Below are positions 19,118 to 34,516 of a stretch of DNA of 64,000 bases, in pieces. The position numbers and the translations under genes are program-made. Numbering within the stretch: the first letter of the stretch is position 1; each line of letters opens with the position of its first letter. This DNA is from Candidatus Binatia bacterium (GTDB lineage: Bacteria > Desulfobacterota > Binatia > Bin18). Location: assembly GCA_963664395.2 (NCBI GenBank), contig OY761159.2, positions 768,001 to 832,000 on the forward strand, read 5' to 3'. The notes under the pieces are model-generated. The model had not been told where the DNA came from. It ran no database searches and saw only the letters and a list, made by a program, of their open reading frames with translations.

Positions 19118-19119
19118 AC

Positions 19120-21186
19120 ATGGGGCATCGAGTCGGCATCGATATCGGCGGCACCTTCACAGATGTAGTCCTGCTGCGCGACGACGGGACATTCCATGTC
19201 TATAAAGAAGACTCGACTCCCGACCAGCCGCTGCTGGCAATTACGCGGGGGCTCAGCGGGCTGGCCGAGGAAGCCGGGACCACGGTCGCAGAGCTTTTGC
19301 GCGAGACGGAATTTCTGGTCCATGGCCAGACCATGGCAACCAATGCGCTGATCCAGCGCAACGGTCCGGTCATCGGACTGCTGTGCACCCAGGGCTTTCG
19401 CGACATCATGTATCTGGGCCGCGGCGGCAAGCCCGAGCGGTTCAACATCCATCTCCAGAAGCCCGAGGACTTTATTCCCCGCTATTTGCGCCTGGGCATT
19501 CCCGAACGCATCAGCGCGGACGGCTCCGAAATCCTGCCGCTCGACGAAGAGGCCATTCGCAACGCGGCCCGGCGCTTCGGTGCCCACGGCGTCAAAGCGG
19601 TTGCCGTTGCGTACTTGTGGTCCATCGTCGATTCGAGCCACGAAAAGCGCACCGCCGAGATCGTGCGCGAGGAGCTGCCCGGCGTCGATGTGCTGTGCTC
19701 CTGTGATGTCCTGCCCGAGATTCGGGAATGGGAGCGCACCTCGGCAACCGTACTGTCGGCCTATATCGCGCCCATCATCGGCGACTATCTGCGCGCCTTT
19801 GAAAAAGAGATGGCAGCCGGCGGCCTGCCCCACCCGCCGCAGATCATGCAGGTCAACGGCGGCTGTGCCTCGGTTGAGGACCTTTTGGCGCGGCCTGTCA
19901 ACGCGGTGGCCTCGGGTCCCGCGGCTGGCCCGGCGGCGGGTGCGCACTACGCCTCGGATACCAAAGCCCCCGACCGGCTGATCATTATCGACATGGGCGG
20001 AACCAGCTTCGACGTTTGCATGCTGCGCGACAGCGAACCGGTCATGTCAACCGATATTCGGGTCGCACATCAGCCCATCGGGGTGAACGGGGTCGAGGTG
20101 CTGTCGATCGGCGCCGGCGGCGGCTCCATTGCCTGGCTCGACAGCGGCAAGGCGCTGCGGGTCGGGCCGCAGAGCGCGGGTTCCCAGCCGGGGCCGGCCT
20201 GTTACGGCCGGGGTGGTCGTGCGCCCGCAGTCACCGACGCCAACCTGGCCGTCGGGCGAATGTCGTCCGGGGCGTTTCTGGGCGGGCGGCGTTCTCTCAG
20301 CGAGCACCTGGCGCAGCGAGCCATTGCCGAGCATATTGCCACGCCGCTGGGGCTGTCGGTCCGCGAGGCCGCGGCCGGTATCCTGACCATTGTGAACTCG
20401 AATATGGCCTCGGCCATCCGGGCGGTCTCGATTGAGCGCGGCATCGATCCCCGCGACTATGTCATGGTCGCGGGCGGTGGGGCCGGTGGCCTGCACGCGG
20501 CCGAGCTGGCCCGTATGCTTGAGATCGGCGAGGTGCTGATTCCGCGTTCCGCGGGCGGCCTGTGCGCGTTCGGCATGGCGGTCACCCCGGTGCGGCACGA
20601 CTACGTGCGCCTGCACCACTGCTATACAAATCGGCCGGACGCGGCCACGAGCATCGCTCAGGTGTTTGACGAGCTGATCGCCCAGGGTGGCTCCCATCTT
20701 AAGGAGGAGGGCTTCAAGCCCGAGGAGATTCGTTTTGCCCGGCATCTTGAAGGACGCTATCCGGGTCAGGTGCACAACCTGACTGTGCCGCTGCCCGAAG
20801 GACCGATTGACGCCGATCTCTTGCGGCGACTCGAAGCCGACTTTCATGACGAGCACGAGCGGCGCTTTACCTATTCGATGCGCGACCAGCCCATCGAGTG
20901 CCTGCACTGGCGCATCGCCGCCACGGGCAACCGACCTGCTCCTGAAGGACGGCTGGCCACGCAGTCCGGGGGTGGGTCAAAATCCACCAGCCGGCGCAGG
21001 GCCTATATGGCCGGGGTCAATGCCGAGGTGGAAACCGAGATTTATCAGGGCGACGCGCTGGCGGCGGGTGACCGGCTGACCGGCCCGGCCATCGTTGAGT
21101 TCGCCACAACCACGGTGGTCGTCAATCCGGATGACCGACTGACCGTCCAGGCCGACGGCAGCTCTCTGCTGACGATTGCCCTCTAA
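19120..21186 (+). CDS. hydantoinase A/oxoprolinase family subunit (ATP-binding)
   Basis: DIGGTFTD, SGPAAG, DMGGTSFD, GAGGGSI, PGPACYG. Confidence 0.92.
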   Translation: MGHRVGIDIGGTFTDVVLLRDDGTFHVYKEDSTPDQPLLAITRGLSGLAEEAGTTVAELLRETEFLVHGQTMATNALIQRNGPVIGLLCTQGFRDIMYLGRGGKPERFNIHLQKPEDFIPRYLRLGIPERISADGSEILPLDEEAIRNAARRFGAHGVKAVAVAYLWSIVDSSHEKRTAEIVREELPGVDVLCSCDVLPEIREWERTSATVLSAYIAPIIGDYLRAFEKEMAAGGLPHPPQIMQVNGGCASVEDLLARPVNAVASGPAAGPAAGAHYASDTKAPDRLIIIDMGGTSFDVCMLRDSEPVMSTDIRVAHQPIGVNGVEVLSIGAGGGSIAWLDSGKALRVGPQSAGSQPGPACYGRGGRAPAVTDANLAVGRMSSGAFLGGRRSLSEHLAQRAIAEHIATPLGLSVREAAAGILTIVNSNMASAIRAVSIERGIDPRDYVMVAGGGAGGLHAAELARMLEIGEVLIPRSAGGLCAFGMAVTPVRHDYVRLHHCYTNRPDAATSIAQVFDELIAQGGSHLKEEGFKPEEIRFARHLEGRYPGQVHNLTVPLPEGPIDADLLRRLEADFHDEHERRFTYSMRDQPIECLHWRIAATGNRPAPEGRLATQSGGGSKSTSRRRAYMAGVNAEVETEIYQGDALAAGDRLTGPAIVEFATTTVVVNPDDRLTVQADGSSLLTIAL

Positions 21187-21216
21187 CAATTTTTCTCTAA
21201 CAAAAGGAGAGCCTGC

Positions 21217-21963
21217 ATGTCGGGTGTCATGATCGTGACGGGAGGCAGTCGCGGCATTGGAGCCGCTATTGCACGCCGGGCGGCGCGGGCCGGGTTTGAC
21301 GTGTGCGTCAATTATGCGCGCGCCAAAGACCGGGCCGAAGAGGTGGTCCACGACGTGATACAGGCCGGGCAACGGGCTATTGCCGTGCAGGCCGACGCGG
21401 GAACGGAAGCCGGTGTCGTTGAGCTGTTTCGCCGAACCGATGCCGAGCTCGGCCCGGTCACCGCCCTGGTGAATAATGCCGCGATCGATTATGAGACCGC
21501 GGTCGTCGACGCCGAGTTGGAGCGCGTCCGGGGCGTTTTTGATCTCAATATCTTTGGCGTGTTCGTGAGCGCCCGCGAGGCCATCAAGCGCATGTCCACC
21601 AAACGCGGTGGCACCGGCGGCGTGATCGTCAACGTCGGCTCCGTTTCCTCGCGCTACGGCGGGCTGCCCGGCGACGTGGTCTACGCCTCAAGCAAGGGCG
21701 CGCTTGATTCCTTTACCCTGGGCCTGTCCAGAGAAGTCGGGCCTGAGGGGATTCGGGTCTGTTGCGTGCGGCCTGGGATTACCCGGACGGAAATTTTTGA
21801 GGCGAGTATCGGCATTGAACGCGCCGAAGCCATCGCCAAGGCACAGACGGTCCTGGGACGCATCTGCGAACCCGAAGAGGTGGCTAATCTGGTGGTCTGG
21901 ATCTGCACGGATGAGGCCTCGTACGTCACCACGACGATCTACGATATTTCGGGCGGACGCTGA
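21217..21963 (+). CDS. SDR family oxidoreductase
   Basis: TGGSRGIG, NNA, YASSK. Confidence 0.92.
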   Translation: MSGVMIVTGGSRGIGAAIARRAARAGFDVCVNYARAKDRAEEVVHDVIQAGQRAIAVQADAGTEAGVVELFRRTDAELGPVTALVNNAAIDYETAVVDAELERVRGVFDLNIFGVFVSAREAIKRMSTKRGGTGGVIVNVGSVSSRYGGLPGDVVYASSKGALDSFTLGLSREVGPEGIRVCCVRPGITRTEIFEASIGIERAEAIAKAQTVLGRICEPEEVANLVVWICTDEASYVTTTIYDISGGR

Positions 21964-21994
21964 ACAGGTCACGTTAATATAAGGAGAAACCAGC

Positions 21995-23944
21995 ATGACC
22001 AGCGCCATACAGGACATACAGGCAGACCACGCGCAGACCCTCCCGACGCATCCCCTGGAGCCGCTGAGCCGGAGCGAGATTGAGCGCGGCGTGGCCATCC
22101 TCAGCGGCTCGGGCGAGCTGAGCGGCCAGCTCGCCTTCTCCAGCGTCAGTCTGGTCGAGCCGCCCAAAGATGAGGTCAAGACCTTTACCCCAGGCGCGCC
22201 GTTTACTCGGGTGCTGCGCTTTCTGGGGGTGGACGAATCTGCCAACGGGAGGCAGGCGGGCAGTTTTGACGCACGGGTCAATATCACGACCGGAGAGCTG
22301 CTTGAGGTGCAGCGCCTTAGCGGCGGACAGGCCCCATTTGGGGGGCGAGACTTGGTGCAATCGATCAAGCTCACCAAAGCCGACCCGGCCTGGCAGGCCG
22401 CGGTCAGACGGCGCGGCGTCGAGGATATGGGCCGGGTGCAAATCGATATGTGGCCGGGCAGCGGTCCCCTGCCCGACGGCGTGGACGCCACCCACCGTCT
22501 GGCCCGGACGATTGCTTTTGTGCGCGAAGACAAGACCGACAACGGCTATGCCCGCCCGCTCCAGGGTCTGATTGCCCATGTGGATTTGACCGAAGGACGG
22601 GTGGCTCATCTGGAAGATCATGGCGTGACAGCCATACCGCCGGAGAGCGGACGCTACGAGGCCACTCATCAGCCTGCGCTGCGGACCGATTTGAAACCGA
22701 TTGCCATTACCCAGCCCGAGGGGCCGAGTTTCCGCGTCGATGGGCACGCGGTGGAATGGCAGAAGTGGTCGTTCCGGGTCGGCATGCACCCCCAGCACGG
22801 CCTGGTCCTGCATACCCTGAGTTATGACGATGCCGGGCAGCGGCGGTCGATCCTGTATCGCGCCTCGCTGGCGGACATGGTGGTGCCCTATGGCGACCGC
22901 GACCCCATGCACACCTGGAAACACGTGCTGGATGCCAGCGAGGCGAGTGTGGGCAATCTGGCCAATTCGCTCAGCCTGGGCTGCGATTGTCTGGGCGAAA
23001 TCCATTATTTTGATATGCCCACACTGCTGGCCGACGGGTCCGTCTATACAATCGAAAACGCCATCTGCATGCATGAAGAAGATTACGGCGTGCTGTGGAA
23101 GCATCGCGACCTGCTGTCCGCGACCACGGAAGTCCGGCGCTCGCGGCGTTTGGTGGTCAGCTCGTTCTTTACGGTCGGGAATTATGAGTATGGCTTCTTC
23201 TGGTATTTATACCTGGACGGCACGATTCAGATGGAGGTCAAGCTGACCGGCATCGTCGGCGTCAGCGCGGTTGAAACCGGGGCCGAGCAGCCCGAGTTCG
23301 CTCCGCTCATTGCGCCCAACCTGGCCTCCCCGATTCACCAGCATCTGTTCTGTTTCCGGCTCGATTTCGATGTGGACGGTGAGAACAACTCGGTCTACGA
23401 GGTCGAGGTCGAACCCGTGCCGCACGGGCCGGACAATCCGCACGGGACGCAGTTCCGGGCCAAGACCACGCTCTTAGCATCCGAGGATGTCGCCCGGCGG
23501 AACATTAACCCGCAGGCCGGCCGGAGCTGGAAGATCGTCAACCCACAGCGGACCAACCGGCTGGGGGTGCCGGTCGGCTATAAGCTGCTTGCCGGCGCAA
23601 CACCGACCCTGTTTGCCCAGGCGGACTCCTATGTGGGGCAACGGGCCGGGTTTGGCCAGCATAATCTATGGGTCACCGCGTTTACGCCGGACGAACTCAG
23701 CGCGGCTGGCGACATCACGCTCCAGAGTCCCGGCGGAGAGGGCCTGCTACGCTATTCACGCGGACGCGATATCGAGAACACCGACATCGTTGTCTGGCAT
23801 ACCTTTGGCCTCACGCATATTCCGCGGCCTGAAGATTGGCCGGTGATGCCGGTCGAGTATGCCGGCTTCAGCCTGATGCCGGTCGGCTTTTTTGAACGCA
23901 ACCCCGCCCTGGACGTGCCGCCCAGTCCGCACGCGTGCAAATAA
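21995..23944 (+). CDS. tynA: copper-containing primary amine oxidase (TPQ-dependent)
   Basis: HPLEPL, LGCDCLG, TPQ consensus NYEY, copper ligands HQH and THIPRPEDWPVMP. Confidence 0.92.
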   Translation: MTSAIQDIQADHAQTLPTHPLEPLSRSEIERGVAILSGSGELSGQLAFSSVSLVEPPKDEVKTFTPGAPFTRVLRFLGVDESANGRQAGSFDARVNITTGELLEVQRLSGGQAPFGGRDLVQSIKLTKADPAWQAAVRRRGVEDMGRVQIDMWPGSGPLPDGVDATHRLARTIAFVREDKTDNGYARPLQGLIAHVDLTEGRVAHLEDHGVTAIPPESGRYEATHQPALRTDLKPIAITQPEGPSFRVDGHAVEWQKWSFRVGMHPQHGLVLHTLSYDDAGQRRSILYRASLADMVVPYGDRDPMHTWKHVLDASEASVGNLANSLSLGCDCLGEIHYFDMPTLLADGSVYTIENAICMHEEDYGVLWKHRDLLSATTEVRRSRRLVVSSFFTVGNYEYGFFWYLYLDGTIQMEVKLTGIVGVSAVETGAEQPEFAPLIAPNLASPIHQHLFCFRLDFDVDGENNSVYEVEVEPVPHGPDNPHGTQFRAKTTLLASEDVARRNINPQAGRSWKIVNPQRTNRLGVPVGYKLLAGATPTLFAQADSYVGQRAGFGQHNLWVTAFTPDELSAAGDITLQSPGGEGLLRYSRGRDIENTDIVVWHTFGLTHIPRPEDWPVMPVEYAGFSLMPVGFFERNPALDVPPSPHACK

Positions 23945-24094
23945 GAGGGAGCAGAAAACTATCCCCTCTTGGGAGGGAATTATATACAATTTTACCCGCC
24001 GCAAGGGGGCGGCCCCTATCTTCTCCCCGCTCGCACCTCTTCAAGCGCAACCAGGATTTGGCGCGTTACCAGTTCTTCCATAGGGAGGAGAATA

Positions 24095-24122
24095 AAAAAG
24101 CCCGGCTGATTGACCGGGCTTT
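24095..24122 (-). terminator. Rho-independent terminator
   Basis: Minus strand AAAGCCCGG-TCAATCAG-CCGGGCTTTTTT, about 30 nt downstream of the last cassette ORF. Confidence 0.75.
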
Positions 24123-24151
24123 AGACAGGGACGGATTATCGGACTACTTGA

Positions 24152-24319
24152 TTAAATTAGGCCCTTCTTATGCATCTCTTTTACTAAGCTGACCATTTCT
24201 TCAGCAGAATCTGCCGCCTCCTCCAGTCCTTTTCTCATGTTAGTCGTTTCATTCTTGAGGTCTTCAAAACTCTTGTCTGTTTCCAATTCAAGTGAGGAAA
24301 TTTCCCTTATTGTGCTCAT
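24152..24319 (-). CDS. 55-aa hypothetical protein (below ORF-track cutoff)
   Basis: MSTIREISSLELETDKSFEDLKNETTNMRKGLEEAADSAEEMVSLVKEMHKKGLI. ATGA overlap with the upstream ORF stop, followed by the terminator. Confidence 0.55.
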   Translation of the reverse strand: MSTIREISSLELETDKSFEDLKNETTNMRKGLEEAADSAEEMVSLVKEMHKKGLI

Positions 24320-24620
24320 ATAGGACCTCCTGCCTGATTGACGTATCCTTTCAATAGTCCCGTAACCTCTCCGAGGGCATTATTCATTCTAAGAATGTTG
24401 TCATTGGCCTTTCTAAGGTCATCTCGGACTTCATCAATCCGCTCGTTCAGTCTCTTCTCGATAGCTTCTATCCGTTCTTTTTGTTGTTTCTCAGTGGCTT
24501 CATTCGCTTGGTGCATTTCACGCCGATAGTTAGCCATAATTCTCCAAAACAACCCGCCCCCGGAATTAGTAATGCAATGATAGGAATCGCCCAGTCTGCG
24601 AGAAGATCACCACCTGTCAT
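24316..24620 (-). pseudogene. small N-terminal TM + coiled-coil protein with an apparent 1-nt frameshift
   Basis: ATG 24620 gives MTGGDLLADWAIPIIALLI. After a shift in the G-rich tract near 24555-24562 it continues as GGGLFWRIMANYRREMH...LNERIDEVRDDLRK. Confidence 0.55.
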
Positions 24621-24788
24621 GTTTTTACTTCTTCATACCGCCACTGCTTCTTAGGTGGTCCCATCATAGCAGCGCGGGCTATATTCTCCGGTGTGTCCAG
24701 GATAGGATCAGGCATGGGTCGGGCAGGACGCCCACCCACATTAGACGCAGGGGGTACGCTTGTGTGGCTCCTTTTTTTGAGTTTTCAT
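24617..24788 (-). CDS. small proline-rich hypothetical protein (possible frameshift in A7 run, or internal start)
   Basis: GGAGG RBS then ATG 24788. The other frame after the A7 tract reads VGGRPARPMPDPILDTPENIARAAMMGPPKKQWRYEEVKT*. Its TGA overlaps the next ATG. Confidence 0.45.
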
Positions 24789-25268
24789 TTTACACCTCCA
24801 AAAATAGCTGTAGCTATTTCTAGCATCGACATTAGCGCAAGCTGTTGGGAATTACAATTCCTGCTGAAGGAAGTGGGAAAGCCGGGAAAATTGGAAGAAT
24901 GGCAAGCGGAGACGTATGGGTGCGCATCTCCGTAGAGTGGGTAAAATTGTATATAATTCCCTCAGCGGCGGGGTGGGTTGTCCCCCGCCTGGCGGCCACC
25001 GCGCGTCTGGCGAGCGCGGGTTCCTGGGAATGTGCATCACACGTCCCAGGAGGGGAAGCGGAGAGCGCCTGGCGTACCGCTTCTGGCTCTCGGTCGATAA
25101 CGACCAGATGACGTTTTGCCTCCTCTTTATAAGCCGAAGCAATTTCCGCCGAGATGGCTCGCAGTTCATTCCGTTCGTCCTCGTCCGTCACACTCCTATG
25201 CTTGACAGACGATTTGTGGTCTTTCAAGCTATGCGGGAAAGCGTGTTTCCGAGGAAAAAGGAGACGGC

Positions 25269-25742
25269 ATGATTGCACTGACCGTGAACGGAACGGAACA
25301 CCGCGTAGATGTCAGCTCAGACATGCGGCTGCTGTGGGTTTTACGTGACATCCTGGGGCTGACCGGGACGAAATTCGGCTGCGGCATGTCCTTGTGTGGG
25401 GCCTGCACCGTCCATCTGGATGGCGAACCGGTACGCTCGTGCGTTATGCCGGTCTCCATTGCCGCGGGCAAGAAAATTACGACTATAGAAGGGCTCTCCC
25501 CAGACGGCAGCCACCCTTTACAGCAGGCCTGGGTTGCTCATCAAGTGCCGCAGTGCGGGTATTGTCAGACAGGTATGATTATGTCGGCCGCCGCGCTGCT
25601 GAAAAAAAAGCCACACCCAACCGATGCCGACATCAACGAAGCCGTGACGAATATTTGCCGGTGTGGGACGTATACGCGTATTCGGGCCGCCATTCATACG
25701 GCCGCCAAAAAATCCGGCTCGAACGACGGGATGAAGGGATAA
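25269..25742 (+). CDS. (2Fe-2S) small subunit, isoquinoline/aldehyde oxidoreductase (IorA-like)
   Basis: [29 protein letters not shown]. Confidence 0.93.
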
Positions 25743-25752
25743 GGACACGCCG

Positions 25753-27933
25753 ATGAAACAGACAGCGAATATATCCCGTCGTTCGTTTTTGTTGCGCTCG
25801 GCTGCGGTCGGGGGCGGACTGATGTTGGAGGTGACGCTCCCGAAGTCTCGTGTGGCCGCGGCGGAACAGGCGAGTCCCGCGGACACCAGCCCTGAGGTGA
25901 CCGCCTGGGTCCTGATTCGGCCGGATGACACCATCGTCATCCGCGTTGCGCGGGTGGAAATGGGCCAAGGCAGTTTTACCGGTCTGCCCATGCTGGTTGC
26001 CGAAGAACTAGGCTGTGACTGGAGCAAAGTGCAGGCCGAGTATGCTTCAACGAGCGAACACCTGAGGCGCAATCGTATTTTTCGCACCATGCTCACCGGC
26101 GGCAGCCGGTCGATCCGTGACAGCCAGGAGTACTTACGCACGGCAGGGGCCGCGGCCCGCCTGATGCTCACCACCGCGGCCGCGCGGCGCTGGGGCGTGC
26201 CGGTCGCGGAATGTGTCGCTGCAAACAGCCTCATCACCCATACCCCAACCGAGCGACAGCTCAGCTTTGGAGCGGTAGCGGCTGAGGCGGCCGCGCTCGA
26301 CATCCCCGAAAATCCGCCGCTCAAAGACCCCGCGGACTGGACCATTTTGGGCCAACCGGCCGCCCGGTTTGACATCCCGGATAAGGTGACGGGCAAGACC
26401 GCCTTTGCCATTGATACCCGGCTGCCCGGCATGGTCTATGCCGCGATTGCCCAGTGCCCGGTGTTCGGCGGCAGCCTGAAAAGCGTAGACGCAAAAAAAA
26501 TTGCCGACATGCGTGGGGTGGTCAAGGTTGTGCGCCTGGAAGACGCGGTCGTCGTCGTTGCCAAAGAAAGCTGGTGGAACGCGCAGCAGGCTGTCCGCGC
26601 ATTACCGATTGAGTGGGATTTTGGGGAGCACGCGAACGTCAGCAGCGACAGCATCATGGAGTTTTTACGTGAGGGCATACAACTCGAAAAGGCGCCGGTC
26701 TCGCGCCATGAGGGCGATATCGACAGCGCGTTTGCCGGCGCGGCCACAACCATTGAAGCCGACTATTACGCCCCCTATCTTGAGCACGCCACCATGGAAC
26801 CCCAGAACTGCACGGCGCTGTATACGGAGCAGCGGGTGGATGTCTGGGCACCGGCCCAGAACAGCGAGGCCACCGCGGCCGTGACCGCTGAGACCGCGGA
26901 CGTGCCGGTGAGTCGGGTCGAGGTCCACAAAGTCCATCTGGGGGGGGGCTTTGGGCGGCGTGGGCTGTATATTGAGTTTGTGCGCCAGGCTGTCAGGATT
27001 GCCAAGACTATGCCCGGCACGCCGGTGCAATTGATCTGGTCCAGAGAAGAGGATATTCAGCACGGCCGCTATCGGCCGGTGGCTTTGGTCCGCATGAGAG
27101 CCGCGCTCAACGCCTCCGGGGAACCAACCGCCTGGTCCGTGCGCCAGGCCGAGCAGTCGATTTTCAGTGCAGTCCGCCCCCATCTGATTCGGGACGGGGT
27201 TGATATCGTCGGGGTGCGGACCTTTGTCGACGCGCCGTACGCCTTTCCAAACATGCATATGGAATACGCCATGCGCAACACCCACGTGCCGCCAGGGCCG
27301 TGGCGGGCGGTGGCGCATACTCATAATCCGTTCTTTCGGGAGAGCTTCATTGACGAGTTGGCCCACGCTGCCGGGCAGGACCCGTATCAGTTTCGACGCA
27401 CACTCTTGCAGGAACCCCAGGCGTCGAAGGACCTGGCCATTCTGGACGCGGTCGCCGAGGCTGCCGGATGGGATAGCCCGCTGCCGGAAGGCGTCCACCG
27501 TGGGATTGCCGTACAGGACGCCTACGGGAGCTATACTGCGGCGGTGATTGAAGCGTCAGTTAATGGTGAAGGTGAGTTGACTATCCAGCGCGTGGTTGTT
27601 GGTATTGATTGCGGCTATGTAGCCAACCCCGATTCGGTCCGGGCTCAGCTCGAAGGCAGCGTCGTCTACGGTCTGACCGCCGCGTTGTACGGGGAGATCA
27701 CCATTAAGGCGGGCCGGGTTGAACAGTCGAATTTCCATGACTACCAGATGATGCGGCTGGCCGAGATGCCCACGGTTGAGGTTGTCCTCAGGCCGACAGG
27801 CGGTTTTTGGGGCGGCGCGGGTGAGCCCGGCATGGCCCCGCTTGCGCCGGCGCTGTGTAATGCCATCTTTGCAGCAACCGGCAAACGTATTCGTTCGTTG
27901 CCGTTAAAGAACCATGATTTACGCCCGGCCTAA
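25753..27933 (+). CDS. xanthine-oxidase-family molybdopterin subunit (IorB-like), Tat-exported
   Basis: SRRSFL Tat motif, EMGQG, TGGSRS, HATMEP, GGGFGRR, GAGEPG, ATGKRIRSLP. Confidence 0.92.
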   Translation: MKQTANISRRSFLLRSAAVGGGLMLEVTLPKSRVAAAEQASPADTSPEVTAWVLIRPDDTIVIRVARVEMGQGSFTGLPMLVAEELGCDWSKVQAEYASTSEHLRRNRIFRTMLTGGSRSIRDSQEYLRTAGAAARLMLTTAAARRWGVPVAECVAANSLITHTPTERQLSFGAVAAEAAALDIPENPPLKDPADWTILGQPAARFDIPDKVTGKTAFAIDTRLPGMVYAAIAQCPVFGGSLKSVDAKKIADMRGVVKVVRLEDAVVVVAKESWWNAQQAVRALPIEWDFGEHANVSSDSIMEFLREGIQLEKAPVSRHEGDIDSAFAGAATTIEADYYAPYLEHATMEPQNCTALYTEQRVDVWAPAQNSEATAAVTAETADVPVSRVEVHKVHLGGGFGRRGLYIEFVRQAVRIAKTMPGTPVQLIWSREEDIQHGRYRPVALVRMRAALNASGEPTAWSVRQAEQSIFSAVRPHLIRDGVDIVGVRTFVDAPYAFPNMHMEYAMRNTHVPPGPWRAVAHTHNPFFRESFIDELAHAAGQDPYQFRRTLLQEPQASKDLAILDAVAEAAGWDSPLPEGVHRGIAVQDAYGSYTAAVIEASVNGEGELTIQRVVVGIDCGYVANPDSVRAQLEGSVVYGLTAALYGEITIKAGRVEQSNFHDYQMMRLAEMPTVEVVLRPTGGFWGGAGEPGMAPLAPALCNAIFAATGKRIRSLPLKNHDLRPA

Positions 27934-28405
27934 TCGCCTGTCACGGCGGCGACTGCTCGTCGGCCTGCTCAGCTGCCTGGGCGGCCTGGGCTCTATGGTT
28001 GCGCCGCTCAGGAAGGCGCGCCCGGCAGACGCACTTCCCGAGAAACTCGCGCCGCTCATTCGCCAGGCAACCGGAGGGGTCATGCCCCAGGTCGGCCGTG
28101 TCACGCTCACGCTGCCAACCCTGGCCGAGAGCGGCAATTCCGTGCGGCTTCAGGTCCGGGTCGAGAGCCCGATGACGCCGGAAGCCCATGTAAAGCAGAT
28201 TCATATTTTTTCAGAAAAGAACCCCAGACCAGTTATTGCCCGCTTCTCGCTGGGGCCGCGCGCCGGACGGGCCGAAATACACACCCGGATTCGACTGGCC
28301 GGCACCCAGCAGGTTGTGGCGGTTGCGGTCATGAACGACGGTACGGCCTGGATGGCGAGCGCGGAAGTCGTTGTCACGGCCGCAGCCTGTGTTGAGGGAA
28401 GCTGA
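27914..28405 (+). CDS. SoxY paralog with AAC(V/I)E-type C-terminal arm
   Basis: SRRRLL Tat motif, LAESGNSV, EKNPRP, TRIRLAGTQ. Ends VTAAACVEGS rather than GGCGG. Confidence 0.85.
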   Translation: MIYARPNRLSRRRLLVGLLSCLGGLGSMVAPLRKARPADALPEKLAPLIRQATGGVMPQVGRVTLTLPTLAESGNSVRLQVRVESPMTPEAHVKQIHIFSEKNPRPVIARFSLGPRAGRAEIHTRIRLAGTQQVVAVAVMNDGTAWMASAEVVVTAAACVEGS

Positions 28406-28421
28406 CGCGACTGGAATCGGG

Positions 28422-28745
28422 ATGGCCAAAGCGAGAATCAAAGTCCCTGAGGTTGTCACACGCGGAGCGGTCTTTGAGGTGCGTTTGCTCATCCGTCATC
28501 CCATGGAAACCGGCTTCCGGTATAACAACGTGGGACAGAAGATTCCCAAAAACATCGTGCATACCGTTCGGTGTGTGTATAACGGGGCGGAGGTTTTCCA
28601 TGCGGAGTTATTTCCCGGTATTGCTGCCAACCCGTATTTTTCGTTTTTCACCACAGCGGAAGTGTCGAGTGAGTTGGAGTGTGTGTGGACAGACGACACT
28701 GGGGTCACGACATCCGAGCGCGTCGCGCTCACGGTCAGCGAATGA
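28422..28745 (+). CDS. soxZ: SoxZ-like sulfur carrier subunit
   Basis: LIRHPMETGFR, IAANPYFSF, WTDDTG. Confidence 0.85.
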   Translation: MAKARIKVPEVVTRGAVFEVRLLIRHPMETGFRYNNVGQKIPKNIVHTVRCVYNGAEVFHAELFPGIAANPYFSFFTTAEVSSELECVWTDDTGVTTSERVALTVSE

Positions 28746-29047
28746 AACGTTTTGTTGTTCTGCTTGCCAGCCTGCTGGCGGTCCCGGCCCTCGCGAGCGC
28801 GGCCCCCATCACGGCAGGCGGCCCGGCATTGGCCCAGGCGTGTGCGGCCTGTCATGGTCCCGGCGGGCGTAGTCAGGGAGCAATTCCGTCACTCGATAGG
28901 CTGCCACCTGAGGATTTCAGGGCAGCCATGCAGGCGTTTCGGACCGAAGAACGTCGGGGGACTGTGATGAATTATATTGCCAGGGGGCTGAGTGAGGCGA
29001 GTATTGAGGCAGTGGCGGCGTATTTCGCAGGGGCGCAGGCACGTTGA
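28742..29047 (+). CDS. monoheme cytochrome c (FccA/SoxE-like)
   Basis: Signal peptide, CAACH, TVMNYIARG axial Met. ATGA overlap with soxZ. Confidence 0.85.
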   Translation: MKRFVVLLASLLAVPALASAAPITAGGPALAQACAACHGPGGRSQGAIPSLDRLPPEDFRAAMQAFRTEERRGTVMNYIARGLSEASIEAVAAYFAGAQAR

Positions 29048-29074
29048 AATGGGGACTTGTGTTCATATCCTTTT

Positions 29075-29171
29075 CCCCCTCGCCCCCTTGGGGGAGAGGG
29101 CTAGGGTGAGGGGGAATCTTCGTATCGAACAACGCCCCTCACCCCGCCCCTCTCCCTAGCCTGGGAGAGGG
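29075..29171. repeat. inverted pair of REP-like palindromic elements
   Basis: CCCCCTCGCCCCCTTGGGGGAGAGGGCTAGGGTGAGGGG, a ~20-bp spacer, then CCCCTCACCCCGCCCCTCTCCCTAGCCTGGGAGAGGG. Confidence 0.75.
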
Positions 29172-29182
29172 AGCAAAAATAT

Positions 29183-30460
29183 ATGTCTCGGTATGTAACC
29201 CGCCGTCAATTCTTCAGCTTGGCCGGGAGTCTCTCTTTTGCCAGTGTGCTGACGCGCCGGGTGCGAGCGAATACACGCGCCAGGGTAGTCGTCGTTGGCG
29301 GTGGTTTTGGCGGGGCGACCTGCGCAAAGTATTTACGCCTGGCCGACCCCAGCCTTGAGGTCACGCTGGTGACACCGCAGCGTCAGTTTATCACCTGTCC
29401 ATTCAGCAACGCGGCCCTGGTCGGGCTTCGTCCGCTCACCTCGTTGACCCATACCTACCAACGGCTCCGGGAAGGCTATGGCGTGCAGATTATCCAGGCG
29501 CAGGCAGACCAACTCGATCCGACCACGCAGAGGATCACACTCAGTGATGGGTGTACTTTGGCCTATGACAAACTTGTTTTATCCCCTGGTGTTGAACTGC
29601 GCTGGGACGCGATAGCGGGCTACGATGCTGAAGCCTGTGCAGTGTTCCCGCACGCCTGGCAGGCCGGTTCACAAACGCGGCTGCTACGTCGCCAACTGGA
29701 ATCTATGGAAGACGGCGGGCTGGTGGTGATCAGCGCGCCGGAGACGCCCTACCGCTGTCCGCCGGGGCCGTACGAGCGGGCCAGTTTGATCGCCCACTAT
29801 CTCAAAACCCATAAGCCAAAATCAAAAGTCTTGCTGCTCGATGCCAAGGACAGCTTTACCAAGGACAAGCTGTTTCTAGCCGCGTGGGAGCGGCTGTATC
29901 CCGGCCTGCTCGAATGGGTGTCGGGCGCGCAGGGCGGGCGGGTCACCCAGGTCGATACACGGACCGGCATCGTTCGCACGGAGTTTGACGAGTATAAACC
30001 AGCCGTGGCCAATATCATTGCCCCACAGCGCGCGGCGGCGATTGCGCGGGCGGGCGGCATCGATGCCGGCACGGGCTGGTGCCCCGTATACGGCGGCACA
30101 TTCGAATCCCGCGTACACCCCAACATTCACATTATTGGCGACGCAGCGATCGCCAGCCCCATGCCCAAATCCGCCTTTAGCGCCAATAATCAGGCCAAGG
30201 TCTGCGCCGCGGCCATTGTGGCACTGCTCCGGGGCGAGCCGGTTGCACAGCCAGCGTTGATGAATACCTGTTACAGTCTGGTCGCGCCCGATTACGGCAT
30301 CTCTATTAGTGCTGTGTATTCCGTTGAAAACGACGCGATTCAGGTTGTTCCAGGGTCGAGCGGCACGAGCCCGCTTGACGCGCCGGAGACAACGCGCGCG
30401 CTCGAAGCAGCCTATGCGCGCTCGTGGTACGCCAATATTACCGCCGATACGTTTGGGTAA
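29183..30460 (+). CDS. fccB: flavocytochrome c sulfide dehydrogenase flavoprotein (FccB/SoxF-like)
   Basis: Tat TRRQF, GGGFGG, TCPFSN, YRCPPGPYERAS, MPKSAFSAN, NTCYSL. Confidence 0.88.
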   Translation: MSRYVTRRQFFSLAGSLSFASVLTRRVRANTRARVVVVGGGFGGATCAKYLRLADPSLEVTLVTPQRQFITCPFSNAALVGLRPLTSLTHTYQRLREGYGVQIIQAQADQLDPTTQRITLSDGCTLAYDKLVLSPGVELRWDAIAGYDAEACAVFPHAWQAGSQTRLLRRQLESMEDGGLVVISAPETPYRCPPGPYERASLIAHYLKTHKPKSKVLLLDAKDSFTKDKLFLAAWERLYPGLLEWVSGAQGGRVTQVDTRTGIVRTEFDEYKPAVANIIAPQRAAAIARAGGIDAGTGWCPVYGGTFESRVHPNIHIIGDAAIASPMPKSAFSANNQAKVCAAAIVALLRGEPVAQPALMNTCYSLVAPDYGISISAVYSVENDAIQVVPGSSGTSPLDAPETTRALEAAYARSWYANITADTFG

Positions 30461-30473
30461 AGGCGACGCTACG

Positions 30474-31712
30474 ATGCACGGAAGCTATTGGAAAGCTCTT
30501 GTCATTCAGGTGTGGGTCGGACTTCTGGTGCTGAGCGATCTCTGCGCCCAGGGGAATCAGCAACTCGACGATTCGCAGACCCGGCATGAAGGGATTCCCA
30601 CCCCGTTGACCGACCAGCCCGGTGATGCGGAGCGGGGGCGGCATATTGTGCTCGACCGGGAGCGCGGCGATTGTGTGGTATGTCATGCCCTGCCACTGCC
30701 CGAACGTCGGTTCCACGGTACGGTGGGGCTGCCCTTGGACAACGTTGGGAGTCGCTATACCGCCGCGGAGTTGCGCCTGCGGCTGCTAGACCCCAAAGCG
30801 CCAAATCCCCACTCCATCATGCCGGCGTATCATACGGTGGAAGGTCGGCATTCCGTACTCGAAGCCTACCGGGGCAAGCCGATCCTCACCGCGCAGGAAA
30901 TCGAAGATGTTGTGGCTTATCTCTTGACCCTTCGTCAGGACGCTCCACAGGCTGCACAGGCTCTCCAAACTCCGAGCAGTTCGCAGCACGAGACTTCCCC
31001 ATACAGCGTCGAAGGCCGTCGCTCCGGCTATACCTATCTGTCGGAGGAACACAGACAGTTACAGGACGACGTGTTTGGCAATCCGGGGATGTTATGGGTC
31101 GAACGCGGTCGCGCGTTATGGGACCAGCCCCAGGGCGACCGCCAACAGGCCTGCGCCAGTTGTCATGGAGACGCGGCAACCAGCCTGCGCGGGGTGCGTA
31201 CCCGCTATCCGCAATTCGATCCACGCACAAAAAAACTCATCAATCTGGAGCAACGGATTAACCACTGCCGCACCGAGCAGCTCCGGGTCGAAGCCTACCC
31301 GTATGAATCCGAAGCCCTGTTGGCGCTCAGCACCTTTGTAAGTTTTCAGTCACGCGGGATGCCGCTTAGCGTAGATATCAAGGGACCGGCCGCACCGTTT
31401 TTCGAGGCGGGCAAAGCGTTCTTCATGCGCCGCCGCGGCCAACTCGACATGGCGTGTAGCCATTGCCATGATGAGTACGCCGGGCAACGCCTGCGGGGTG
31501 AGGTCGTCAGCCAGGGACAGACCAACGGTTTCCCTGTCTATCGGCTGAGCTGGCAAACGCTGGGATCAACGCACCGCATGTTTGCCCGGTGCAACACCGC
31601 AATCCGTGCCCAACCCCTGGCCTACGGGGCGGACGACTACGTGAATCTGGAATTGTATATGGCCTGGCGTGGTCGTGGCTTGCCGGTAGAAACACCGGGC
31701 GTGCGCCGGTAA
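30474..31712 (+). CDS. fused SoxX-SoxA c-type cytochrome
   Basis: SoxX half: GDAERGR, CVVCH, SIMPAY. SoxA half: NPGMLWV, CASCH, LEQRINHC, CSHCH, FPVYRLSWQ, RMFARC, ETPGVRR. One continuous frame. Confidence 0.87.
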   Translation: MHGSYWKALVIQVWVGLLVLSDLCAQGNQQLDDSQTRHEGIPTPLTDQPGDAERGRHIVLDRERGDCVVCHALPLPERRFHGTVGLPLDNVGSRYTAAELRLRLLDPKAPNPHSIMPAYHTVEGRHSVLEAYRGKPILTAQEIEDVVAYLLTLRQDAPQAAQALQTPSSSQHETSPYSVEGRRSGYTYLSEEHRQLQDDVFGNPGMLWVERGRALWDQPQGDRQQACASCHGDAATSLRGVRTRYPQFDPRTKKLINLEQRINHCRTEQLRVEAYPYESEALLALSTFVSFQSRGMPLSVDIKGPAAPFFEAGKAFFMRRRGQLDMACSHCHDEYAGQRLRGEVVSQGQTNGFPVYRLSWQTLGSTHRMFARCNTAIRAQPLAYGADDYVNLELYMAWRGRGLPVETPGVRR

Positions 31713-31798: not shown

Positions 31799-32419
31799 TT
31801 AGCCTTTTATGACTGCAAGTAGGATGATTCGCGTCGTTCGACAAAACCGTTCCAATAGAAGCGGTGAGAAACGACTGGACAGCAACATTTTCCCGGGTGT
31901 TATGGCGTTAACATTCGCCCCATAGTACTTGCGCACCACTTCATCGAACCTGCGTCTTGTCCCAGTATTACCGTGAGCGATGTGATTCCTCACTTTTCTC
32001 AAATTGGAGATGAATTGCCCATGCCTAATAACCGTATCAATAAAGTGTTCATTCGTTGGGAATAAGTACTCAAGATTCTTCTTGATTTCTCCCGCCCCAC
32101 CCCATCGAAGTCGCAATTTTTCTTTTTCTGAGGCCGGACGCCCGAAAGTACGCATCGCGTCTCGGGCACGCTCAAAGCTCCGTGTCGGGTTGGGTCTCTG
32201 TAGCAGAGGAGAGGAGCCATCACAGTACTTCGCCCCACAAATTAATCGGCAGGCTGAGTCCTCAATAATTGCTTCAAATAGGGAGTAGAGACGAACAGCT
32301 ATCATTTCAGCAACATACAGACGTGGAAGATCATCAACGGACTGGAGACCTGACACCAAGGTTAGCGCTGTTGCTGTGGTACGGTGAATTTGATCGGCCT
32401 GCGGAAGCAATGTCGACAT
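31799..32419 (-). CDS. HEPN-domain putative ribonuclease
   Basis: N-terminal RLYSLFE helix and the Rx4H motif RNHIAH. AT-richer. Start is 2 nt downstream of the DUF262 gene stop. Confidence 0.7.
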   Translation of the reverse strand: MSTLLPQADQIHRTTATALTLVSGLQSVDDLPRLYVAEMIAVRLYSLFEAIIEDSACRLICGAKYCDGSSPLLQRPNPTRSFERARDAMRTFGRPASEKEKLRLRWGGAGEIKKNLEYLFPTNEHFIDTVIRHGQFISNLRKVRNHIAHGNTGTRRRFDEVVRKYYGANVNAITPGKMLLSSRFSPLLLERFCRTTRIILLAVIKG

Positions 32420-32421
32420 CG

Positions 32422-33426
32422 CTAGTTCAGAAACTTGCTAATATAGCGCCTACGTATTTTCCGATTGGCAATACGCTGCGTGCTTGCACGACATGCTTCG
32501 TAGAATTCACTATCCGTTCTAGGGCGTTCATTCGGAGGCTTGTCAGAATTGAACCGCTCGTCAACCTCACGAAGCGCGTCTTCGAGTTTCCTTCCACTAA
32601 CATGAGGATTCTCGTCAAGAACAAGCACCAAGGAGAAAAACACTGGACTCCTGGAGAAAATCGTTTCACGGATTGTTTCTGCCGATAGCGATGCGATACG
32701 AGAAAGTACGGAATCAAGCCTCTTCTTGATGTCCGACGCTTCCTGAAAACTTTCTTCGTTATCGGCATAAATTTTATTAAGCCTTGAGCTTGAGAAGTCC
32801 GATAATCCCTTCAGCATGTTCAAGACAATATCGGAGATAAATTCGATTTCTTGCATTCTGGCAATATCGTTTGCAGTGAATATCTTTAGATCTCTCCACA
32901 ACGAGACACGGGAAGCAGCCTCACGGAGGCAGAACTGTTTAAATTCTCCACTGAAAGCCGCGTTACGCTTCTCTTGAGAGTTGAGTGTTTTCGCAACTGA
33001 ATTCAAGCGTCCGAAAACTTCGATCACATCCTCATCTGTTGCCCCCAGAAGCCAACCACCAGAAAGTTTTGTTTCGCGAAAACTTCGCTTCTGGGCTGAG
33101 GAAAGTTGATTGTATGTCACTTTTCTCCCGTAAACCGGGTGGAAGGCGGAAAAGCCCTCTTTGGCATATTCAAGGATTGCTCGGATTCGTTGCTGCCCAT
33201 CGACAACCTCTCTAAGACTCTTATCTTGCTCAAGATCGACGTTGTGGCGAAAGTAAAGCGTTGGTACAGGGTTTTGCTCGAACAGAGTGTTGAGAAGGTA
33301 TGATTTCTGTGGTTGAGTCCATACGGAGCGGCGCTGGTACCAGGGATTTAACTTGAGTTCTTGATGTTTTTCCCAGTTAATTAAGTCTTGGACGATAAGA
33401 GATTCATAGTCGACACGGTCCATCAT
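32422..33426 (-). CDS. DUF262 (ParB-like/GmrS-like) domain protein
   Basis: YQRRSVW, VVDGQQR, VFGRLNS, LNSQEKRNA. Confidence 0.87.
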   Translation of the reverse strand: MMDRVDYESLIVQDLINWEKHQELKLNPWYQRRSVWTQPQKSYLLNTLFEQNPVPTLYFRHNVDLEQDKSLREVVDGQQRIRAILEYAKEGFSAFHPVYGRKVTYNQLSSAQKRSFRETKLSGGWLLGATDEDVIEVFGRLNSVAKTLNSQEKRNAAFSGEFKQFCLREAASRVSLWRDLKIFTANDIARMQEIEFISDIVLNMLKGLSDFSSSRLNKIYADNEESFQEASDIKKRLDSVLSRIASLSAETIRETIFSRSPVFFSLVLVLDENPHVSGRKLEDALREVDERFNSDKPPNERPRTDSEFYEACRASTQRIANRKIRRRYISKFLN

Positions 33427-33715
33427 CTACTCCCTTCGACACTCACCAGCGAAGTTGGAGAGAAGTCGGTCTCTACTTTGCTTCAGTCAATTTACAGGTG
33501 GGGAAGCTCAATATCCTCGTGAGCCTTTAGATTCAAGTATAAAAACTTATTCCTCATCTCCACCTCTATTTTACGCCTGCCCTACACCTCTCCCCGCGGT
33601 ACCGGGACACCCGGAATCTTCACCCGCATCCTACCCATCTCACCAAACGTGGTGATAAACAAAGTCTTCCAGTCATCGCCCCGCCCAGCGGTGGGGGCGT
33701 CATAGCTCAGCCCTA

Positions 33716-34516
33716 TTACCGGCCGTTCGCAGCATGAAGCGCACTGCGGATTATCACCCCCTCACGGGTCAGGGCCTCTCGAAGTGTCTGCAGTATCTCC
33801 GGAGCCTGCATCAACTCGCCCGATATGGCAATGCTTTCTGCGTCAAGCGCGAGCTCTTTGCCACCCGTGGTCGTGACCTTCCCCTCGGTGACAACTCTCA
33901 TGACGAGTCGTACTGCTTCTTCCACACTGTCCTCGCCGTGCCCGTACGTCAGGTCTCCGTCGTCCTTGTATCCTAACCCTGGGTAGAACTCTTTGACGAC
34001 CCGCATCCCCAGTTGCTCGGCGACTTCCAGGACGGGATAGCGCGGAAGCGCTGGGAGGTAGGCCACGATGTCCGAGTTCACCGCTTGAAATCCCTCAAGC
34101 ATCGCTCGGGTATTCTCCTCGCTGAGCTGCGCCCACACGTAAAACGCACTATGTGGCTTGGCCGCCTCAAGCCGCAATCCTGCTGCTTCGGCAAAGGCTT
34201 TCAGCGCCCCGAGTTGATACACAACATAATCCTTGCCCTCTTGGGGAGTGATGTGCATGAGTCTCCGGCCGAAACCCAGCATGTCGGGAAAGCCCGGATG
34301 GCCCCCGACTGTCACACCGTACTTCTTGGCACTCTCGACAGAGCGACGGACCCAGCTGGGATCACCTGCGTGAAAGCCACACGCGATGTTGGCGTGACTA
34401 ATCCCTCGCATCACCTCCTCAGGCCGCCCCAGCACATAGTTACCAAAGGATTCACCCACATCGCTGTTGAGATCAATCCAAGTTCTGGTGGTTCTGGTGG
34501 TTCTCGTGGTTCTCAT
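33716..34516 (-). CDS. LamB/YcsF (PxpA-like) protein, divergent
   Basis: DLNSDVGESFG, ANIACGFHAGDP, HPGFPDMLGFGRR. KPHSAFY and ISGE differ from the usual KPHGALY and HGD. Confidence 0.8.
   Translation of the reverse strand: MRTTRTTRTTRTWIDLNSDVGESFGNYVLGRPEEVMRGISHANIACGFHAGDPSWVRRSVESAKKYGVTVGGHPGFPDMLGFGRRLMHITPQEGKDYVVYQLGALKAFAEAAGLRLEAAKPHSAFYVWAQLSEENTRAMLEGFQAVNSDIVAYLPALPRYPVLEVAEQLGMRVVKEFYPGLGYKDDGDLTYGHGEDSVEEAVRLVMRVVTEGKVTTTGGKELALDAESIAISGELMQAPEILQTLREALTREGVIIRSALHAANGR
34482..34516. repeat. 9-bp in-frame tandem repeat (~4 copies)
   Basis: GTTCTGGTG GTTCTGGTG GTTCTCGTG GTTCTCAT, encoding MRTTRTTRTTRT. Confidence 0.8.

Follow-up and report, generated by a model that had tools for sequence, protein, structure and literature searches.

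The 64,000-nucleotide stretch of DNA analysed here (the window), from an uncultured, soil-type Candidatus Binatia metagenome-assembled genome (MAG), encodes at positions 25269–31712 a complete periplasmic operon of seven co-oriented genes on the + strand. In this operon a molybdenum (Mo) hydroxylase of the xanthine-oxidase family (IorA and IorB) is followed by a SoxY paralogue, SoxZ, a small cytochrome c, FccB/SoxF and a fused SoxX-SoxA protein. The four proteins IorA-IorB-SoxY-SoxZ are the constant core of a gene set that recurs in distant lineages, SoxXA being a frequent addition and FccB a clade-specific one, and the operon is the only Sox-type equipment of its organism. We consider it probable that IorAB and its own SoxYZ work together directly. 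That the set is a self-contained periplasmic module, in which an IorAB-type Mo hydroxylase lacking a flavin adenine dinucleotide (FAD) subunit and exported by the twin-arginine translocation (Tat) route acts with its own SoxYZ on carrier-bound sulfur without SoxB, is a reading that we put just short of even. The cluster is of a catalogued but uncharacterised kind, not an undescribed one as proposed in the first-pass annotation of this DNA: the gene set has been in print for Starkeya novella since 2013 (PMC3797975), and its SoxY family already has a name, TIGR04487.

Genes were identified from the translations of open reading frames (ORFs), from which the gene starts were also refined, and from family profiles. 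The first gene, iorA (25269–25742), encodes the small subunit with two [2Fe-2S] clusters (Fer2_2, E 6.9e-30; Fer2, E 2.4e-09), and iorB (25753–27933) the large subunit that binds the Mo cofactor (MoCoBD_1, E 1.3e-35; MoCoBD_2, E 5.1e-30). They are followed by the soxY paralogue (27914–28405; PF13501), by soxZ, encoding the SoxY partner (28422–28745; PF08770, E 1.6e-26), by a gene for a monohaem cytochrome c with the motif CAACH (28742–29047; Cytochrom_C, E 1.2e-05), by fccB/soxF (29183–30460; FCSD_central, E 4.4e-46, plus FCSD-flav_bind) and by the fused soxX-soxA gene (30474–31712). The overlaps of iorB with soxY (20 bp) and of soxZ with the cytochrome gene (4 bp, ATGA) had been reported in the first-pass annotation along with the common orientation of the seven genes, and every checkable particular of that description proved right; the other intergenic gaps measure 10, 16, 135 and 13 bp. 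Reading the translations by eye, we found twin-arginine motifs in IorB (SRRSFL) and in the Tat leaders of SoxY (SRRRLL) and FccB (TRRQFF), and hydrophobic N-termini in the cytochrome, where it forms a Sec-type leader, and in SoxXA. IorA has no signal peptide and is therefore presumably exported together with IorB. The small cytochrome is likely an FccA/SoxE-like acceptor and possibly serves IorAB too. Judged by sequence, the catalytic motifs are intact in all parts of the operon.

The carrier protein departs from canonical SoxY at its functional end. It terminates in ...VVVTAAACVEGS, and its carrier cysteine, Cys159, lies in the arm AAACVEGS (arm region TAAACVEGS), which has the form A-A-C-x-E instead of GGCGG; the translation thus confirms what had been noted about this terminal cysteine. 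The best NCBIfam match is to TIGR04487, the 'SoxY-related AACIE arm protein', at 168.5 bits. This falls 3.5 bits below the cut-off of 172 but leads by 60 bits the match to true SoxY (TIGR04488, 108.4 bits), which is itself under its cut-off of 125, and the score against TIGR04557 is 61.3 bits (cut-off 140). Among relatives, TIGR04487 scores reach 177.9 bits in the genome G025 and 199.5 bits in a beta-proteobacterial SoxY that lies beside IorAB (locus L082), and the arm end AAACVEGS is found in 66 of the 120 best SoxY homologues. The assignment to a recognised but uncharacterised AACIE-arm family therefore holds; TIGR04487 names a protein and gives no function for it.

The other Sox proteins are of canonical type. 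SoxZ (TIGR04490, 79.8 bits, cut-off 76), SoxX (TIGR04485, 72.5 bits, cut-off 61) and SoxA (TIGR04484, 230.4 bits, cut-off 110) all pass the NCBIfam 'true' cut-offs, and since the last gene exceeds the cut-offs of both the SoxX and the SoxA model, it is a SoxX-SoxA fusion. Its product contains three CxxCH motifs and matches 1h31_A (E 3.2e-57) and 1h31_B (E 2.9e-23). In the SoxA half, both CxxCH motifs and the distal cysteine (HRMFARC) align with the SoxA chains 1h31_A and 2c1d_A; of the RxxxxC active site claimed earlier, the cysteine thus stands, but the nearby arginines occupy alignment columns that differ from those of 1h31_A. FccB aligns with the flavocytochrome c chains 5n1t_A, 3vrd_B and 1fcd_A (E 3.9e-152 to 3.6e-130), all three of its cysteines included, and its motifs TCPFSN, RCPPGPYERAS and NTCYSLV match 5n1t_A column by column (E 3.9e-152), which bears out the annotated redox cysteines. 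The three are known from the 1FCD literature as the covalent-FAD cysteine and the redox pair.

IorAB is of the two-subunit type of the xanthine-oxidase family, and the locus encodes no FAD subunit. The closest solved chain to IorB is 8gy3_C, the large subunit of a membrane-bound aldehyde dehydrogenase, matched over the full length with an E-value of 1.6e-69. Neither subunit reaches the cut-off of any NCBIfam equivalog, the best score being 170.7 bits for XdhA, whose cut-off is 780. The IorB motifs GGGFGRR (G397–R403) and GEP (Glu691), which correspond to the catalytic GGGFGxx loop and GEP glutamate of this family, are invariant in all 14 aligned Sox-linked homologues. The IorB family is very large: at an E threshold of 1e-30 it counts 4461 representatives. 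We built a FastTree phylogeny from the 14 Sox-linked sequences and the representatives of 600–800 residues among the 150 best (159 leaves, midpoint root). In this tree, the Binatia IorBs are monophyletic, and all 14 Sox-linked IorBs lie within a clade of 31 of the 159 leaves, gene context having been seen for these 14 only.

Neither of the enzymes that complete canonical Sox pathways was found in the organism, as the first-pass annotation had already suggested from the window. Profile searches of its genome (5.04 Mb in 14 contigs, 95.93% complete) returned a single SoxY (PF13501), a single SoxA and no match to SoxB; the best score for SoxC was 36.5 bits against a cut-off of 420, and SoxD had no separate search. 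SoxB was also found in none of the 28 genomes of the genus, 11 of which are single-contig, and together with its absence from the window's genome this brings a SoxB encoded elsewhere close to exclusion. Searches of the distant carriers G025, G041 and G329, and of the cultured alphaproteobacterium Pelagibacterium mangrovi WS-203, likewise gave neither SoxB nor SoxC over cut-off.

We examined the loci of SoxY relatives for the neighbours of the gene, in a scan that left out loci L047–L060, most of which, by the lengths of their contigs, appear to duplicate loci already fetched. Within the genus, SoxY is present in 18 of 24 other genomes, and of the 20 relatives' loci that we fetched, 17 have the full set of seven genes arranged as in the window, while two are truncated by contig edges; the small cytochrome gene keeps its position in all 17 complete loci. 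The remaining locus, from a class-level relative (G027), has only soxYZ and fccB. Farther away, the same genes occur in other arrangements. In P. mangrovi WS-203, soxA-soxX-iorB-iorA diverges from cyt-fccB-soxY-soxZ, and in the alphaproteobacterial G329, iorB-iorA diverges from cyt-fccB-soxX-soxY-soxZ-soxA. Three metagenome contigs (L138, L139 and L141) have one more gene order, fully co-oriented. At a second G329 locus (L136), SoxY and SoxZ of the same family stand as a further pair at a contig start, and the arm is longer (...GACEPTMITFPSMGGG); no IorAB, SoxXA or FccB was seen in the 10 kb downstream of the pair.

The strength of the association was quantified in a sample of 401 genomes of the order Burkholderiales, taking TIGR04487 matches at E up to 1e-42, homologues of the window's IorB at E up to 1e-130, and as neighbours genes within 4 kb of each other. 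The 73 TIGR04487 matches came from 71 genomes, and 25 of these matches passed the cut-off; IorB homologues were present in 193 genomes. An IorB homologue neighboured 63 of the 73 SoxY matches (22 of the 25 over cut-off), and six of the ten matches that had none nearby sit within about 2 kb of a contig end. Counted in reverse, a TIGR04487-like SoxY neighboured 35 of the 39 IorB homologues with at least 56% identity to the query and 26 of the 59 with 48–55.9% identity. An unpublished genome, G642, contributes one row to each of the two main counts, which without it become 62/72 and 34/38. Among 20 fetched loci around over-cut-off SoxYs, IorB was beside SoxY in 18; IorA was found in 16 of these 18 modules, and in the other two a contig end lies at its expected place. 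Both SoxX and SoxA accompany 11 of the 18 modules and neither accompanies the remaining 7, and FccB with its cytochrome was seen in a single one. Another 20 loci, fetched around IorB homologues lacking a strong SoxY match, include 10 with a more divergent SoxY-SoxZ pair.

Given the rearranged gene orders in distant lineages, the Burkholderiales counts and the fetched loci, the linkage between the Mo enzyme and SoxYZ reflects more than inheritance, and its conservation, anticipated in the first-pass annotation, extends across phyla. The same data correct the earlier picture of FccB and SoxXA as fixed parts of the module, many loci having neither; the FccB addition was seen in Binatia, in the alphaproteobacterial type, in L141 and in one beta-proteobacterial locus. 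Four loci of the order Burkholderiales (L186, L188, L191 and L192) are minimal four-gene modules, iorA-iorB-soxY-soxZ, whose arms end in ..TGCG, ..SSCT, ..TACGG or ..AGCGL, not AACxE; their IorBs are the nearest to that of the window (58–59% identity). In modules reduced to IorAB and SoxYZ, tblastn found no cytochrome. Beta-proteobacterial MAG loci (L077–L090) have a sister SoxY type whose arm ends in ...TACLD...; it occurs there in soxX-soxY-soxZ-soxA clusters without IorAB or FccB, and all four of the tested genomes with such clusters have canonical SoxB. Near most of eight TACLD-type loci lies a gene of about 290 residues, metallo-beta-lactamase-like by its N-terminus as read by eye.

A structural prediction points in the same direction. 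We modelled SoxY residues 39–163 and SoxZ together with IorB residues 40–726 from our own alignments, IorB being the scored partner. The ipSAE interface score was 0.68 (median of 0.68, 0.67 and 0.75), compared with 0.00 for the best of three controls. This passes a calibration mark that 58 of 80 solved complexes attain, against 2 of 110 mismatched pairs, counts that apply only roughly to three chains with our own alignments. The runs share at least 80% of their contacts, and the predicted local distance difference test (pLDDT) of the partner is about 90. We know of no solved complex between SoxYZ and a xanthine-oxidase-family enzyme, and recall of one by the predictor is therefore unlikely to account for the pass. 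In the model, the carrier touches IorB through SoxY residues 68–72, 129, 153 and 155 and SoxZ residues 32–40, which form the face around the base of the arm; the contacts on IorB are residues 104–114, 308–315, 370–386, 469–482 and 506–510. By the numbering of bovine xanthine oxidase, segments 469–482 and 506–510 may correspond to substrate-channel loops. The prediction thus supports docking of IorB on the arm-bearing face of SoxYZ, and direct contact between the Mo subunit and SoxYZ, which the earlier annotation had suggested modelling, is what the model depicts.

How such a module might work can be outlined from these observations. FccB and the cytochrome could oxidise sulfide and/or SoxXA could oxidatively attach a sulfur nucleophile to Cys159 of SoxY, as the known activities of their families suggest. 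The loaded SoxYZ would dock onto IorB with its arm-bearing face, as in the model, and the Mo centre might then oxidise the carrier-bound sulfane sulfur with oxygen taken from water, as SoxCD does elsewhere, in a reaction that would be unprecedented in this enzyme family. A four-electron oxidation would release the product as sulfite and free the carrier thiol, and because such a product can leave as sulfite, the hydrolase SoxB would not be needed. Electrons would pass from the iron-sulfur clusters of IorA to the small cytochrome c. Oxidation of carrier-bound sulfur would account together for the absence of SoxB and SoxCD, for the bulkier arm and for the presence of a sulfide dehydrogenase; as the chemistry of IorAB we regard it as plausible, though somewhat less than an even bet. 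The broadest form of the proposal is that a Mo hydroxylase was recruited for protein-bound sulfane sulfur, replacing both SoxCD and SoxB, and so constitutes a third, hitherto unrecognised periplasmic route of sulfur oxidation, present in hundreds of species and the only Sox-type pathway of Binatia; this we advance tentatively, as a possibility that more probably fails than holds.

Several observations weigh against oxidation of carrier-bound sulfur by IorAB. [quoted passage not shown] The genome contains no SorA-type sulfite dehydrogenase to judge from its best SoxC-family match (36.5 bits), SoeABC having not been searched for. In the predicted complex, arm residues 156–163 are placed without confidence, so that the model leaves the reach from Cys159 to Mo unsupported, and the IorB interface segment 469–482 is deleted in the alphaproteobacterial IorBs. 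The idea that the IorB interface loops are insertions special to the Sox-linked clade was tested and rejected. SoxYZ is wholly absent from 10 of the 20 loci around close IorB homologues without a strong SoxY match. In Burkholderiales, the lack of SoxXA in 7 of 18 modules and of FccB in all but one indicates that feeding by sulfide is not universal, and most carriers of that order have a full canonical Sox system (4/4 tested). Finally, in the S. novella study (PMC3797975) neither the SoxAX nor the SoxYZ of the cluster was detected, and its transcript levels on glucose, on methanol and on thiosulfate were very low.

The same facts bear on what else the pairing could mean. The carrier might hold an organic group, as an aldehyde thiohemiacetal or as an organosulfur mixed disulfide formed by SoxXA, on which IorAB would perform its usual carbon chemistry. 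The kinship of IorB with the aldehyde dehydrogenase 8gy3_C speaks for this, as do the SoxYZ-like carriers catalogued beside periplasmic alcohol dehydrogenases (TIGR04557; PMC11237559), the Burkholderiales modules devoid of SoxXA, and, in several relatives within the genus, the gene of an aldehyde-producing copper amine oxidase whose end is only some 30 bp away from the start of iorA; the predicted docking fits it equally well. Yet SoxXA, which forms sulfur-sulfur bonds, is in most modules, FccB is found in four lineages, the module has no conserved gene of thioesterase-like or hydrolase type, and the amine oxidase has no visible signal peptide and was not seen paired with iorAB outside the genus, so that we hold a carrier of organic groups to be unlikely. 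Slightly less likely still is the second option of the first-pass annotation, that SoxYZ is a maintenance factor, delivering persulfide sulfur in the periplasm by which the exported enzyme would regain its labile Mo=S ligand. This ligand is required for the activity of xanthine-oxidase-family enzymes and can be lost, the carrier is predicted to dock near the enzyme, and the core pairing exists even where SoxXA and FccB do not. However, many close members of the very large IorB family do without SoxYZ, as in the 10 of 20 loci above, which indicates that exported enzymes of this type generally need no such helper. A dedicated SoxXA and sulfide dehydrogenase in a stoichiometric operon would also be heavy equipment for repair, and in alphaproteobacterial loci cytoplasmic maturation genes (MocA-like and XdhC-like, from ORFs named by eye) already lie beside the module.

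A looser association, in which the two sets of genes would share only a cytochrome c acceptor or a regulator, or in which the Sox genes would be a redundant, functionless duplicate, could explain the very low expression of the second sox cluster of S. novella (PMC3797975) and the canonical Sox systems of most beta-proteobacterial carriers. We find it improbable: the linkage survives at least four gene orders across three phyla-level groups, the docking score stands at 0.68 where controls give 0.00, a shared cytochrome cannot be the tie in minimal modules that consist of IorAB and SoxYZ and in which tblastn found no cytochrome, and in Binatia the Sox set is no duplicate, being the only one in the genome. 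The remaining reading, thiosulfate oxidation of the ordinary kind by means of soxB and soxCD genes located elsewhere in the genome, is close to refuted. SoxXA and SoxZ do exceed the 'true' cut-offs, and a genome 95.9% complete could lack a gene in its assembly, but a SoxB missing from all 28 genomes of the genus, 11 in one contig, a SoxC that is not over cut-off and a SoxY under the true-SoxY cut-off and without GGCGG leave this explanation barely credible.

Several known systems resemble parts of the operon. With canonical Sox it has in common SoxXA and SoxZ of canonical type, a SoxYZ with a C-terminal cysteine arm and an FccB, since SoxF/FccB can accompany such systems; it differs in that the arm is not GGCGG and that, instead of SoxB and SoxCD, neither of which was found, there is a xanthine-oxidase-family enzyme. 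The functional analogue that we would propose for IorAB is the sulfane dehydrogenase SoxCD, a Mo enzyme of the periplasm whose substrate is the sulfur held on the SoxY cysteine and whose electrons go to a c-type cytochrome, but it belongs to the unrelated sulfite-oxidase family, with a different cofactor chemistry. Enzymes of the 8gy3_C/IorAB/PaoABC type share with IorAB the two [2Fe-2S] clusters on a small subunit, the lack of a FAD subunit and Tat export. Those of 8gy3 type carry a multihaem cytochrome c subunit, whereas the IorAB of the window is paired with SoxYZ and has only a monohaem 10-kDa cytochrome in its locus. We counted CxxCH motifs beside IorABs without SoxYZ in search of multihaem subunits, and obtained zero everywhere, a result that we do not trust because the gene caller was crude. 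FccB and the small cytochrome gene just upstream recall flavocytochrome c sulfide dehydrogenase, embedded here in a Sox/Mo-enzyme operon. The quinoprotein-dehydrogenase-associated carriers of TIGR04557 are a parallel, since they too are SoxYZ-like, stand outside the thiosulfate pathway and serve a particular periplasmic dehydrogenase; unlike the separate SoxY and SoxZ of the window, they are Y-Z fusions beside pyrroloquinoline quinone (PQQ) enzymes, and SoxYZ fusions beside PQQ alcohol and methanol dehydrogenases are discussed in PMC11237559. This 2024 survey of SoxY diversity retained only sequences with a 'GGC' motif and thereby left out the AACVE-arm clade.

The closest precedent is the 'second sox gene cluster' of Starkeya novella, soxX2Y2Z2A2F2 (Snov_1982–1977), accompanied by a xanthine-oxidase-family Mo enzyme (Snov_1975/1976) (PMC3797975, 2013). 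Going by its published description, the cluster has the same content, namely SoxX, Y, Z and A, a SoxF-type flavocytochrome and the Mo enzyme, without SoxB or SoxCD. Its authors suggest that it has either no functional significance or a role under conditions not yet tried. By the same source, a canonical Sox system, complete and strongly expressed, is present in S. novella as well, while the Binatia cluster is the only Sox set in a genus where no SoxB was found, and SoxX and SoxA are fused in the window, unlike in the S. novella cluster. The SAR324 paper (PMC4782131) reports FccB flanked by SoxYZ and, separately, IorAB, the two not being linked to each other. Apart from the S. novella paper, our literature search, which did not cover supplements, returned nothing linking AACIE-type SoxYZ with IorAB or isoquinoline 1-oxidoreductase, and queries for soxYZ with iorAB turned up only the indolepyruvate IorAB.

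Upstream of the operon, a conserved leader 5' of iorA (approximately 25130–25268, + strand), recognised by similarity among relatives' loci, is a candidate promoter or 5' untranslated region. Its last 70–130 bases match the same place in 10 relatives' loci with 79–91% identity. We saw no convincing sigma-70 match in this interval; a promoter and terminator scan gave no more than the level of shuffled sequence, and the intergenic DNA before iorA has no Rfam match. RNA-library contigs from three studies partly cover the operon and bridge the iorA/iorB and iorB/soxY junctions, some of them without differences from the window. Since these are contigs only, with small shares (0.05–0.16), and since low-depth coverage extends to the non-coding DNA upstream as well, they may reflect DNA carry-over.

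The spacer between the cytochrome gene and fccB contains, at 29076–29160, a short, GC-rich and partly palindromic repeat, the 23-base core of which has 43 copies in the genome at up to 3 substitutions; the window has a second copy, on the minus strand near 1516. In four runs, RNA-library contigs pile up on this repeat with loose ends on both sides, indicating that it is present in many further contexts. The 1.3 kb (23945–25268) that separate the copper amine oxidase gene from iorA are without a convincing gene and lower in G+C (0.536 over 24001–26000), and about 100 bases near 24959–25059 recur in at least five other places of the genome with 84–93% identity, in the manner of a small mobile repeat. 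The preceding genes (17192–23944) encode hydantoinase B, hydantoinase A, a short-chain dehydrogenase and the copper amine oxidase, and keep their synteny with the operon across the genus. On the other side, a pair of minus-strand genes with a G+C content of 0.49 (31799–33426) separates soxXA from a LamB/YcsF gene; one is weakly HEPN-like (RiboL-PSP, E 1.3e-4, under cut-off) and the other has a GmrSD_N/DUF262 domain. Because LamB/YcsF lies within about 50 bases of soxXA in at least two relatives (L029 and L036), the pair looks like an inserted island of defence type. Low G+C also marks the stretches 1–2000 and 32001–34000 (about 0.49–0.50, against about 0.60–0.65 elsewhere in the window).

SoxY paralogues without the GGCGG arm are common, and our data show that a large family among them is associated with a Mo hydroxylase much more consistently than with any of the Sox enzymes. 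The module is carried, with no SoxB or SoxCD found over cut-off, by whole lineages: the Binatia genus, P. mangrovi and one more genome from the alphaproteobacteria. To the earlier description of such a cluster we add a lineage that has no other Sox set, the fusion of SoxX with SoxA, the recognition of IorAB-SoxYZ as the core, a docking prediction with clean controls and a cultured carrier that lacks SoxB. This carrier, P. mangrovi WS-203, makes the function testable at the bench. Surveys that score the presence of soxXAYZ and the absence of soxB as an incomplete thiosulfate pathway would, in such organisms, misread a different system. If IorAB does act on carrier-bound sulfur, the reaction would be of a new type for the xanthine-oxidase family, and the module would represent a new pathway of the sulfur cycle in soils, fresh water and the sea.

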